A stretch of DNA of 22,471 bases from a virus (IMGVR_UViG_2778261136_000010); one strand, 5' to 3'. Shown: positions 11,335 through 14,127, counted from the first letter of the stretch. Notes: generated by a model from the sequence alone, not told the origin. Made by a program: numbers and translations.

Positions 11335-12362
11335 TGGGAAAGAGTAAGAAAAACCGCGCTGCGGCGACGAATCAGCTCAAGCATAAAAGCCAGAATTCAG
11401 CCGAAGCATTCAGCTTTGGCGATCCCGTTCCTGTTCTGGACCGCCGTGAACTGCTGGACTATGTGGAATGCGTACAGATGGACCGCTGGTATGAGCCGCC
11501 CGTCAGCTTTGACGGACTGGCACGAACCTTCCGCGCCGCCGTGCATCACAGCTCACCGATTGCAGTAAAATGCAACATTCTGACCAGTACCTACATCCCT
11601 CACCCGCTGCTCAGCCAGCAGGCTTTTTCACGTTTTGTGCAGGACTATCTGGTATTTGGTAACGCTTACCTGGAGAAACGCACGAACCGGTTCGGTGAAG
11701 TTATCGCCCTTGAGCCTGCTCTGGCAAAATACACCCGACGTGGGTTAGACCTGGATACCTACTGGTTTGTGCAATACGGTATGGCAACCCAGCCGTATCA
11801 GTTCACGAAAGGCAGCATCTTTCATCTGATGGAACCGGATATTAATCAGGAGATCTACGGCCTGCCTGGCTATCTTTCTGCTATTCCATCCGCTCTGCTC
11901 AACGAGTCCGCCACGCTGTTCCGCCGGAAGTATTACATTAACGGCAGTCATGCAGGCTTCATCATGTACATGACCGATGCCGCGCAAAACCAGGAAGATG
12001 TGAACAACCTCCGCAACGCGATGAAAAGCGCCAAAGGTCCGGGCAATTTCCGCAACCTGTTTATGTACTCGCCTAACGGCAAAAAAGATGGCATTCAGAT
12101 TATCCCGTTATCGGAAGTCGCGGCGAAGGATGAGTTTTTGAATATCAAGAACGTGAGCCGGGACGACATGATGGCAGCACACCGTGTGCCGCCACAAATG
12201 ATGGGGATTATGCCTAATAATGTTGGGGGATTTGGGGATGTGGAGAAGGCGAGCTTGGTCTTTGTTCGTAATGAACTGATTCCTTTACAAAAAAGACTGA
12301 TGGAAGTAAATGTCTGGCTCAATGAAGAAGTGATTGTATTCAATAGATACATTTTAGAGTAA
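11334..12362 (+). CDS. Q: Portal protein gpQ
   Basis: ATG at 11334 overlaps the P stop (TGATG); ~342 aa; position and size as P2 gpQ. The last ~50 codons have visibly different, AT-rich codon usage. Confidence 0.9.
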   Translation: MGKSKKNRAAATNQLKHKSQNSAEAFSFGDPVPVLDRRELLDYVECVQMDRWYEPPVSFDGLARTFRAAVHHSSPIAVKCNILTSTYIPHPLLSQQAFSRFVQDYLVFGNAYLEKRTNRFGEVIALEPALAKYTRRGLDLDTYWFVQYGMATQPYQFTKGSIFHLMEPDINQEIYGLPGYLSAIPSALLNESATLFRRKYYINGSHAGFIMYMTDAAQNQEDVNNLRNAMKSAKGPGNFRNLFMYSPNGKKDGIQIIPLSEVAAKDEFLNIKNVSRDDMMAAHRVPPQMMGIMPNNVGGFGDVEKASLVFVRNELIPLQKRLMEVNVWLNEEVIVFNRYILE

Positions 12363-12386
12363 AAAAATGGGCACCATGAGGTGCCC
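12361..12386 (-). terminator. Intrinsic terminator for the minus-strand cargo gene
   Basis: Seen: stem GGGCACC (12369-12375), loop ATGA, stem GGTGCCC (12380-12386). On the minus strand the hairpin is followed by a 7-T run (12361-12367, the A-run on plus). Lies between the cargo gene stop (12393) and the Q stop (12362). Confidence 0.6.
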
Positions 12387-12392
12387 AAGTTG

Positions 12393-13817
12393 TTACTTAC
12401 GTGTTTCAACTATATTCAGCCCCTTATAAAGGCTTTGATGGATATATACAGAACCAGTATTTGGCAACATTAAATCAGCATCTTCACATCGGAATCTAGC
12501 CGTACCGGAATTGCCCAACCGGACACCAATCACAGAAGCATTAAATAGAGTTTTCATCAATTCACGAGAAGTATAGCGCTTACAAAGGTCAGGCGCTTTC
12601 TCTTCAATCTTACTGATGAATTCTTCTGTAGAATTATATCTATGCTGCGTCTGACGTAAAGATTCCAATAGCTCACCAAAATGAGGGTAGAGCCTTTTGT
12701 ATTCTTGTTTTAAGTCCTCAACTTTCCAAGCGCTGTACCGTTCTTCAGCTATTCTAATTATATCCTTTTTTATTTCAGAAGCATTAGCATCACAGCGTTT
12801 TTGGCATTCTTGCAAAAACTGAATAACTTCTCTTGGGCGCAAAAATGTGCGCTTCACCAAATAGTTAAATGGTGAAATACTTCCTCTCATTTCACCTTCC
12901 TCAAAAATATCATCTATAGTTATATTTTCCGGCAATCTGGCGTTCACCATATCTTTCAACAACTCTGGTGTCCAGATTATTTCTTCTTCAATTGCTCGGT
13001 GTTTATCTTTATCATCAAATTCCAGCCCTTGATAAATATCAGAGCGTAAAAATGTTACAATATGAATACCTTTGGCTCTAGTATCAGAATAACTATCATT
13101 AATATCTTTTGTTGCCTTCAACAAGCCAATCAAAAGGCTTTTGGCATCATCCGATCCATCCCAAGAATCATCTAATCGATCAGTGGCAATTAGCACCCCA
13201 ATATCTGTACAAATTTCTTTAAGCTCGTCAAGGATGATTTTTATTATTTGAGGTGTCAATGGTGCTTGCGAAGCATCCTTATTAAACCCCACAGCATATC
13301 CGAAAGCCTCAAAATTGAATGAACTTAATCCCGAGAGTAACTTCCTTGCAGTTCCCAAAGTAGTTGGCGATATACCACCATAGTTATCAGAAACAAATTT
13401 TTTAATTCTAGCAAGGGCCTCCCGAGGTCTTTTCTCTGAAAATTGCCTACCTGACCTAATAATTTCTGCCGCAGCCTCAACAGCTATTGCAAATTTCCAA
13501 GCATTACAATGTGCCTGTTCGGGTAACAACCCTTGCTCTTGATATTGTTTTAATGCTCCCCAAGCATACTGGTCTGGGGTCATGACATTTACGATAACGT
13601 CCTGCCCATATTTTGCTCTTACCAACCTTGGGAGTTGGGTAAAGATGGATGATTTCCCAGCCCCCTTTCTTCCAAGAAAATGGGCACTATAGAAACTCAG
13701 AGCTTGCTCAACTTGAGGAGTATTGATGAAATAATCAGCCAACCTTCTATCAGCTTCAGCATCGACAGTACCAAAGTTGAGTCCCTTAACTGTAAGGCCT
13801 AACGCATCTAACCGCAC
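12393..13817 (-). CDS. Hypothetical P-loop NTPase (474 aa), AT-rich cargo gene in the cos-proximal variable region; candidate phage-defence / exclusion protein, family not recognised
   Basis: GTG start at 13817 with an AAGGA Shine-Dalgarno 6 nt upstream. Walker A GRKGAGKS at residues 49-56; Walker B-like GVLIATDRLDD near residues 207-217. Markedly lower GC and different codon usage (AGA, ATA, TTA) than flanking phage genes. Own terminator. No TOPRIM or other effector motif recognised by eye. Confidence 0.7.
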   Translation of the reverse strand: MRLDALGLTVKGLNFGTVDAEADRRLADYFINTPQVEQALSFYSAHFLGRKGAGKSSIFTQLPRLVRAKYGQDVIVNVMTPDQYAWGALKQYQEQGLLPEQAHCNAWKFAIAVEAAAEIIRSGRQFSEKRPREALARIKKFVSDNYGGISPTTLGTARKLLSGLSSFNFEAFGYAVGFNKDASQAPLTPQIIKIILDELKEICTDIGVLIATDRLDDSWDGSDDAKSLLIGLLKATKDINDSYSDTRAKGIHIVTFLRSDIYQGLEFDDKDKHRAIEEEIIWTPELLKDMVNARLPENITIDDIFEEGEMRGSISPFNYLVKRTFLRPREVIQFLQECQKRCDANASEIKKDIIRIAEERYSAWKVEDLKQEYKRLYPHFGELLESLRQTQHRYNSTEEFISKIEEKAPDLCKRYTSRELMKTLFNASVIGVRLGNSGTARFRCEDADLMLPNTGSVYIHQSLYKGLNIVETRK

Positions 13818-13904
13818 GATAATTCCTTAATTGGTAAACTAAATTTGAACTTGATGCCAACAAAGATAATATCAATTTAATTAAAAAGAAAGCTGTTGCG
13901 CGCG

Positions 13905-13923
13905 CTCGTATCCCCGCCACGCC
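13905..13923 (-). other. Candidate cos site (19-nt cohesive-end sequence)
   Basis: Minus strand reads GGCGTGGCGGGGATACGAG. The first 13 nt match my recollection of the conserved start of P2/186 cohesive ends (GGCG[A/T]GGCGGGGA...). Orientation is consistent with the left end running towards Q. Not verified against a database. Confidence 0.5.
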
Positions 13924-13964: not shown

Positions 13965-13992
13965 ACGCAAAAGCCCGCCAGTTCTGGCGGGC
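13965..13992 (-). terminator. Putative intrinsic terminator downstream of the tum-like operon
   Basis: Seen: GCCCGCCA-GTTC-TGGCGGGC hairpin (13973-13992), followed on the minus strand by TTTTGCG. Confidence 0.45.
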
Positions 13993-14127
13993 CTTAGCAA
14001 AAACGATCCTCAAACGATCATGCGATCTCATGCGGCATAGACATGCACTACAGAGCTAACGCCTCGCAAGGGCTCGTTGTTCAACGTTGCTGACGCCAGA
14101 AACAAGTTCAGACGCCAGCAACGTTTC

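Follow-up and report, generated by a model that had tools for sequence, protein, structure and literature searches.

A solitary Sll1717-family ATPase with a STAND-like core in the cos-proximal hotspot of a P2-family prophage, a candidate single-gene anti-phage system

STAND/NLR immunity is understood as the combined action of a sensor, a switch and an effector. A remote but described relative of the gene considered here is DS-41 (the AAA2 construct, WP_033812887.1), a single gene for a 502-residue protein from the DefensePredictor study, which its authors class as a remote homologue of the STAND protein Avs1B (PMC13092281). Alone in E. coli, DS-41 lowers the plating of T4, Bas1, Candy and Bas63 by 3.6-5.3 logs (Table S7, PMC13092281), and over the wider set of T4, Bas1, Candy, Bas63, Bas3, Bas69 and Bas19 its effect ranges from 2.3 to 5.3 logs (PMC13092281). 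Here we describe a gene at positions 12393-13817, minus strand, of the viral DNA stretch IMGVR_UViG_2778261136_000010 (22,471 nucleotides; the whole stretch is called the window below). It encodes a 474-residue P-loop ATPase of the Sll1717 family, is a horizontally acquired, self-contained cargo of the cos-proximal hotspot of a P2-family prophage, and, like the remote DS-41, retains the switch alone.

Profile searches place the protein firmly. It scores 284 bits on NCBIfam NF047389 ("P-loop ATPase, Sll1717 family"; cut-off 75), with residues 15-467 aligned to profile positions 1-454 of 454, and RefSeq gives the Sll1717-family name to a 98.6%-identical locus. On NF053860 ("DS41_1 anti-phage protein") it reaches 25.9 bits against a cut-off of 370 (E = 4.5e-6), in a partial match confined to residues 188-371. 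DS-41 itself, represented by a stand-in (P0121) whose 399 available residues are 99% identical to the validated protein, scores 414 bits on NF053860 and 97.6 bits on NF047389 (cut-off 75), and its homologues are named "Sll1717 family" by NCBI. The 474-residue protein is a core, full-length member of the Sll1717 family and not an orthologue of DS-41. Alignment of its clade with the DS-41 clade by hhalign gave a probability of 96.4% (E = 1e-9, 325 columns, residues 9-362, 19% identity); against the lone DS-41 sequence the hhalign probability was only 22%, and BLASTP against DS-41 was not significant. The kinship is therefore clear only through the DS-41 family profile, single-sequence comparisons being insufficient.

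Pfam gave no match beyond a chance-level one to MAD, and PDB searches with the single sequence and with a profile returned P-loop-level or chance matches only. The PADLOC candidate model PDC-M28C (PDLC04561) matches the window protein weakly (E = 0.025) and 21 of 40 clade members at E <= 0.01 (best 4.7e-7). The names "Sll1717" and "PDC-M28" occur in no paper that we found, and the protein accession is absent from the DefensePredictor supplements. The first-pass annotation had presented the gene as an undescribed single-gene anti-phage candidate that could not be placed in any named family. A single-gene defence candidate in a hotspot it remains, but the family has a name, given by NF047389 and RefSeq alike, and the validated DS-41 is a remote member of it, so that "undescribed" no longer applies; the profile search proposed in that annotation came back without a significant match from Pfam and PADLOC and with a strong one from NCBIfam.

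The gene is an intact open reading frame (ORF) with a GTG start, and the same N-terminal start is found in all homologues of the 474-residue protein. Since the longest open frame in shuffled versions of the gene was 201 codons (mean 87), a frame of this length is not a product of chance. Its G+C content (GC) is 0.394, against 0.56 to the left and 0.53-0.55 in P/Q and A. The elements around it are as follows:

13824-13828, minus strand: Shine-Dalgarno sequence AAGGA, 6 nt 5' of the GTG
13866-13874, minus strand: putative extended -10 element TGATATTAT, read from the sequence
12368-12387, minus strand: intrinsic terminator hairpin, 8-bp, GC-rich and with a T7 tail, 5 nt past the stop codon and 6 nt past the convergent Q

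An 80-bp leader (13818-13897) accompanies the gene in both E. coli and Klebsiella; a consensus promoter scan returned no canonical -35/-10 pair in it. No partner gene adjoins, the convergent Q lying on one flank and cos and DinI on the other. The foreign composition (0.394 against a backbone of about 0.55), the gene's own ribosome-binding site, GTG start and terminator, and the lack of an adjacent partner, all pointed out in the first-pass annotation, are borne out by these data, and its further suggestion, that the gene could be expressed independently of the late genes, is plausible.

The sequence motifs and the predicted fold identify the class of ATPase. The relevant segments, numbered by the translation, are:

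13650-13673, minus strand: Walker A GRKGAGKS, residues 49-56, with K55
13167-13196, minus strand: extended Walker B VLIATDRLDD, residues 208-217, with D213, D216 and D217
13212-13577, minus strand: helical insert of about 120 residues (81-202) from beta2 to the Walker B strand, from the AlphaFold2 secondary structure
13287-13331, minus strand: near-invariant Gly/aromatic loop GLSSFNFEAFGYAVG, residues 163-177
12417-12629, minus strand: C-terminal winged-helix domain, residues 397-467

Across 40 homologues G49, K51, G52, G54, K55 and S56 of the Walker A motif are invariant, as are D213, L215, D216, D217, S218 and W219 in and just after the Walker B, so that both nucleotide-binding motifs recognized at the outset stand. 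The Walker B aligns with VLIDKLDE of DS-41; its D-R-L-D-D core (D-K-L-D-E in DS-41) is of the NACHT type. An AlphaFold2 model built with the 40-sequence alignment has a predicted local distance difference test score (pLDDT) of 89.7 and a predicted template modelling score (pTM) of 0.88. The figures listed with this model are 12.0 for Cdc6/ORC, 11.5 for TnsC, 11.4 for the NLRs WRR4A and CED-4, 11.2 for a wheat resistosome, 11.1 for BrxC, 10.3 for Avs5, 9.2 for Avs3 and 9.0 for RdrA, and the C-terminal domain matches the winged helices of NB-ARC proteins. Walker A, the extended Walker B (hhhhD-x-h-D-[DE]) and the succession of nucleotide-binding domain, helical lid and winged helix occur in the order that defines STAND proteins. 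None of the Pfam STAND models (NACHT, NB-ARC, AAA_16, nSTAND) reaches its gathering threshold on the window protein, and in relatives AAA_16, nSTAND and NPHP3_N score below threshold only.

The protein is thus modelled as a bare NOD of STAND/NACHT-like type, made up of nucleotide-binding domain, lid and winged helix. With a P-loop that begins at residue 49 and a winged helix that closes the chain, it could accommodate neither an effector nor a repeat sensor. The 474-residue protein has no Pfam match to TOPRIM or a nuclease and no transmembrane segment (maximal 19-residue hydropathy 1.19), and together with the NOD-only model this agrees with the earlier remark that neither TOPRIM nor nuclease nor any further effector motif is recognizable. 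The conservation profile singles out the insert at residues 81-202 as both the most conserved region of the protein and specific to the clade. The loop at the end of this insert has the consensus G-L-x-S-F-N-x-x-A-F-G-[FY]-[GA]-V-G, with G163, F167, A171, F172, G173 and G177 invariant; its pLDDT is low (62-66), and in the model it would sit topologically at the position of AAA+ pore loop 1 or the initiator-specific motif.

The window belongs to the P2 family and is 186/Fels-2-like, and a near-identical E. coli locus is annotated with genes for scaffold, terminase ATPase, portal, the ATPase discussed here, DinI, replication endonuclease, Dam, CII and CI. Its cos was found through phage 186, a search with the P2 cos 19-mer at <=3 mismatches having returned no match. 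The cos site and the unit exchanged beside it are:

13905-13923, minus strand (read 13923->13905): cos cohesive-end 19-mer GGCGTGGCGGGGATACGAG, matched to the annotated cos of phage 186
12296-13897: swapped cargo module, GC 0.385, comprising the 3' tip of Q, the terminator, the gene and the 80-bp leader

The 19-mer shares 15 of 19 bases with the annotated 186 site, the first 13 being all identical, and is invariant across all related prophages. With cos at this place, the 474-residue gene sits between cos and the portal gene Q, where P2 and 186 have an interval of about 170 bp that holds the terminator tQ/tW alone. The old and tin genes of P2 lie on the other side of cos from this interval. 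The position between cos and Q given in the first-pass annotation therefore holds, with one correction to its mention of tin and old in the A-to-Q interval of P2: the P2 cosL-Q segment of about 170 bp contains only tQ. It was right to call the region a recognized variable hotspot, as Rousset et al. (2022) treat the whole gpA-gpQ region, the cos-proximal region of P2-like phages, as a single hotspot.

Comparison of related prophages shows the gene to be an exchangeable occupant of this slot. At the DNA level it is present in 2 of 5426 complete E. coli genomes, against 1281 that have the adjoining backbone. In six related prophages the backbone on the DinI side is 97-99.5% identical and the slot holds other cargo in unchanged orientation, so that the survey of the cos-Q interval suggested in the first-pass annotation finds a gene that is not shared by all family members. 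The six cargos, each from a related E. coli prophage, are:

AAA ATPase and S8 peptidase
551-aa P-loop protein
SecB-like three-gene cassette
DUF262 protein
DprA and phosphoribosyltransferase (PRTase)
557-aa hypothetical protein

One of them, the DprA and PRTase pair, is a validated defence system from the P2 hotspot (Rousset et al.). The same slot is occupied by our gene in Klebsiella and Erwinia prophages. It lies between gpA and gpQ, beside cos, at a place whose content varies among close relatives, as is the rule for cargo of the P2-like cos-proximal hotspot. In blastn comparisons with the six prophages homology breaks at 12280-12334 and returns at 13893-13899; the left junction falls within the last 28-82 nt of Q and the right one is flush with cos. 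The terminator hairpin at 12368-12387 varies in sequence from cargo to cargo in the related prophages and so belongs to the module. From the homology breakpoints, the cargo-specific hairpins and the gene-linked leader we delimit the mobile unit to about 12296-13897.

Several further observations concern the same region. All six cargos (L013, L014, L045-L048) share one strand and are read away from cos, in the direction of the 3' end of Q, so that they converge on the late P-Q operon. The SecB-like chaperone with its two small ORFs resembles a toxin-antitoxin-chaperone cassette. The last 10-27 or so codons of Q, together with the hairpin that follows (window 12280-12362), change with each cargo; since the Q ends differ per cargo, the portal protein changes its C-terminal tip whenever the cargo is swapped. 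Between DinI and cos, at 13965-13996 on the minus strand, a GC-rich hairpin GCCCGCCAGAACTGGCGGGC is followed by TTTT. It is kept in all related prophages at the position of the annotated t95b terminator of phage 186 and is absent from the list of the consensus terminator scan; this hairpin probably shields the cargo from early transcription coming from upstream. On the DinI side of cos there is a second, small site of variation (window about 14049-14118): E. coli 18KM2445 has there an insert of about 700 bp with a 111-aa hypothetical gene (L001 7750-8522) and a Klebsiella prophage a different short insert with an 85-aa ORF (L002 7503-7760), and the window has neither. Rfam and tRNA scans of the window gave no matches.

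Beyond this slot the family is widespread and sparsely distributed. The exact protein occurs on 78 contigs whose records are named E. coli; variants from Salmonella, Enterobacter and Citrobacter fall in the same 90%-identity cluster, and a 92% version is found in Klebsiella, Raoultella and Erwinia; those examined occupy the prophage slot described above. Proteins of 50-70% identity come from Aeromonas, Thiohalobacter, Comamonas, Methylocystis, cyanobacteria, Verrucomicrobiota, Armatimonadota and many Actinomycetota. In a pattern-limited scan with one genome per species, only 30 loci turned up among 185,579 species, and a full profile search returned 4158 clusters (50% identity) at E <= 1e-3, with 369 at E <= 1e-30. 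In 21 of 21 loci (L015-L042, GTDB) from different phyla, including ones in genomes of 70% GC, the gene has a GC 6-23 points lower than the 10-20 kb around it, a sign either of recent or repeated transfer or of a compositional constraint on the gene. The family gene is always solitary, with no conserved neighbour in about 30 loci from six phyla. No match was found at E <= 1e-3 among the viral predicted structures of BFVD.

The surroundings of these loci were compared by taking 110 ORFs within three genes of the family gene and, from the same loci, 101 control ORFs more than 5 kb away. PADLOC matches at E <= 1e-10 among the proximal ORFs comprise a type IV restriction enzyme (4.7e-217), DRT UG33 (1.8e-159), NERD+UvrD, PbeA, AbiTii, DolB and a 2TM effector, and the Pfam matches there include integrase, transposases and resolvase, whereas the distal controls gave only generic matches (JAB, PDC-S04, cold-shock domain). 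With its crude ORF calling, small numbers and lack of locus-by-locus mapping, the comparison is suggestive of an Sll1717-family gene that often lies near defence or mobility genes. Distant relatives are fused to an EAD7 adaptor, a VWA domain or a second P-loop and match nSTAND1/3 and NPHP3_N below threshold, on which account we place the core among the STAND NTPases of conflict systems. Such fusions agree with the NTPase-centred conflict systems of Kaur et al., and in published analyses EAD7 adaptors couple the NTPases to separately encoded effectors.

Some homologues call for separate mention. In Thiohalobacter thiocyanaticus (L010 6942-13004) a homologue lies in a small island inserted into a flagellar gene cluster, with genes for a DUF6338 protein, a 606-aa AAA_15/AAA_21/SMC_N ATPase and a DEAD-box helicase on its flanks; this island looks like a defence islet. 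Homologues of about 600 residues (P0080-P0118, P0241; 51-54% identity) have a conserved, soluble C-terminal extension of about 120 residues, in which neither a Pfam domain nor an obvious catalytic motif is seen. On 214 plasmids, for the most part conjugative and from Enterobacteriaceae and Ralstonia, there are distant homologues of the C-terminal half at 23-32% identity (H47-H70), which span Walker B to the winged helix and are annotated as hypothetical or ATP-binding.

Gene integrity, foreign origin, swapping at the hotspot, family, fold and the absence of effector, sensor and partner are observations made here; defence activity and every step of a mechanism are put forward on their basis as what they suggest. 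We infer anti-phage activity for the window clade, and on balance, with moderate confidence, we take this prophage gene to encode an anti-phage ATPase of the Sll1717/DS-41 kind that acts autonomously and is expressed from the lysogen. How it might act is a much more tentative matter. The resting protein would be ADP-bound or closed. An infection cue, either a phage protein or phage DNA, might be read by the insert and the Gly/aromatic loop, possibly with the winged helix, and sensing would lead to ATP-dependent oligomerisation of the NOD. As the protein has no effector domain, the assembly itself could be the effector, binding or sequestering a component of phage replication or packaging, or phage DNA, much as ORC, TnsC or MuB do; an alternative output would be a drain on ATP or arrest of the cell. 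It is conceivable, at a rather low probability, that we are dealing with a NOD-only STAND protein in which sensor and effector are one, which assembles on infection and acts on phage nucleic acid or protein through the Gly/aromatic loop and winged helix, dispensing with a nuclease, TIR, protease or membrane effector, and that this effector-less form of NLR-type immunity is common to DS-41.

A number of points weigh against a defence function. The homology to DS-41 is remote, with 19% identity, no significant BLASTP match and the C-terminal 110 or so residues unaligned, and no model of PADLOC 2023 recognizes the 474-aa protein. Identity of 50-70% over the whole length across phyla is unusually high for an arms-race sensor, and several homologues stand alone amid housekeeping genes. 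PADLOC matches number about 10 of 110 among proximal ORFs and about 5 of 101 among distal ones, a modest and statistically untested difference, and a tblastn search of 50,697 isolated phage records found no homologue. The promoter of the gene is only a putative one, read from the sequence. Lastly, the P2 hotspot also holds non-defence cargo such as partition systems and cytolethal distending toxin (CDT), and of eight additional P2-hotspot systems tested three gave protection (Rousset et al.); in P4 hotspots, as distinct from those of P2, six of eight randomly picked unknown cargos protected (2026 study).

Such considerations give some substance to the notion that the gene is a non-defence accessory ("moron") or a regulatory STAND ATPase, for instance a DNA-binding regulator like MalT or AfsR or a fitness factor of the lysogen. 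STAND clades have repeatedly swapped defence and non-defence roles (2026 STAND survey), the winged helix could bind DNA, and both the very high cross-phylum conservation and the solitary housekeeping surroundings are atypical of arms-race genes, in a hotspot whose cargo is in part of other kinds. We nevertheless find this unlikely: the distribution is very patchy, with the 30 loci of the pattern-limited scan, the GC is foreign everywhere and defence or mobility genes lie close by, Pfam finds no helix-turn-helix output domain of the MalT/LuxR kind, and DS-41, a member of the family, is validated as defence. The missing effector domain might instead mean that the protein is a switch whose effector has its gene at another place in the host or prophage, and would serve as the NTPase hub of a split system, a view that could draw on the EAD7 adaptors of relatives, which per published analyses couple NTPases to separate effectors, and on the weak matches of 21 of 40 clade members to PDC-M28C, whose name suggests one part of a multi-gene PADLOC candidate. 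Yet the loci share no conserved neighbour, the 1.6-kb module travels as a single gene among Enterobacterales prophages, the window protein itself is without an EAD, and DS-41 works as a lone cloned gene in K-12, and we judge a split system quite improbable. Finally, the protein might be an ORC/TnsC-like AAA+ factor of the prophage life cycle, working at the neighbouring cos in packaging, replication or interference with P4-type satellites. But the gene is missing from nearly all close prophages, where unrelated cargo fills the slot, is absent from the 50,697 isolated phage records searched and sits at non-phage chromosomal sites in other phyla, and adjacency to cos is a property of the hotspot and not of the gene, all of which makes such a role very improbable indeed. 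We retain an autonomous anti-phage ATPase as the most economical reading.

Another unrecognized gene in the P2 hotspot is in itself no surprise, and this one adds a further unannotated cargo type to the cos-proximal site; the attraction lies in the mechanism by which a NOD-only STAND protein might protect. Were it protective alone, it would reveal the capacity of the NOD module as such, in a system of 474 residues tractable for structural work. The exchange at the hotspot has an interest of its own, as the swap unit takes in the 3' end of the portal gene. The clade has been missed by PADLOC 2023 and by databases of isolated phages although it occurs in prophages of E. coli, Salmonella, Klebsiella, Enterobacter, Citrobacter and Erwinia. 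A 2026 survey of STAND proteins grouped only sensors of at least 400 residues and left out clades lacking them, and a minimal family of the Sll1717 type would accordingly be left out.

Three classes of P-loop protein were considered and set aside. The OLD family, to which P2 Old and GajA belong, is excluded by the absence of TOPRIM, AAA_21 and AAA_15 in Pfam and of OLD/GajA in PADLOC, in keeping with the initial impression that the protein is not obviously Old. A KAP P-loop NTPase is excluded by the lack of a transmembrane segment and of a KAP_NTPase match, and a tripartite protein of the Avs/NLR kind by the absence of both an N-terminal effector and a C-terminal repeat sensor.

When set beside these and other known systems, the window protein shows both resemblances and clear departures. 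P2 Old is likewise a prophage-borne exclusion gene of the gpA-gpQ hotspot and encodes a P-loop ATPase; unlike it, the window protein has neither a TOPRIM nuclease nor an ABC-type signature, and its gene lies on the Q side of cos. The ATPase of Old is of the ABC/OLD class, in contrast to the STAND/AAA+-like one here. Unlike Avs/AVAST and bNACHT proteins, it has no effector and no repeat sensor and only about one third to one quarter of the typical length of an Avs. The archaeal Arch_ATPase proteins Sso1545 (2fna) and PABY2304 (2qen) and Orc1/Cdc6 are 12-13% identical to it, and in comparison with them the 120-residue insert and the Gly/aromatic loop are specific to the window clade. There remains DS-41. 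Its defence activity is experimentally validated and that of the window clade is presumed; the Gly/aromatic loop of the clade is met by a gap in the DS-41 sequence, and over the C-terminal 110 residues no alignment is obtained. The two nonetheless share a single-gene organization, a similar size (474 against 502 residues) and scores above the NF047389 cut-off, as well as an N-terminal F-x4-AE-x-[DE] motif, a GxxGAGKS P-loop, a long insert between Walker A and Walker B, a D-[RK]-L-D-[DE] Walker B and the lid motif (S/R)PRE.

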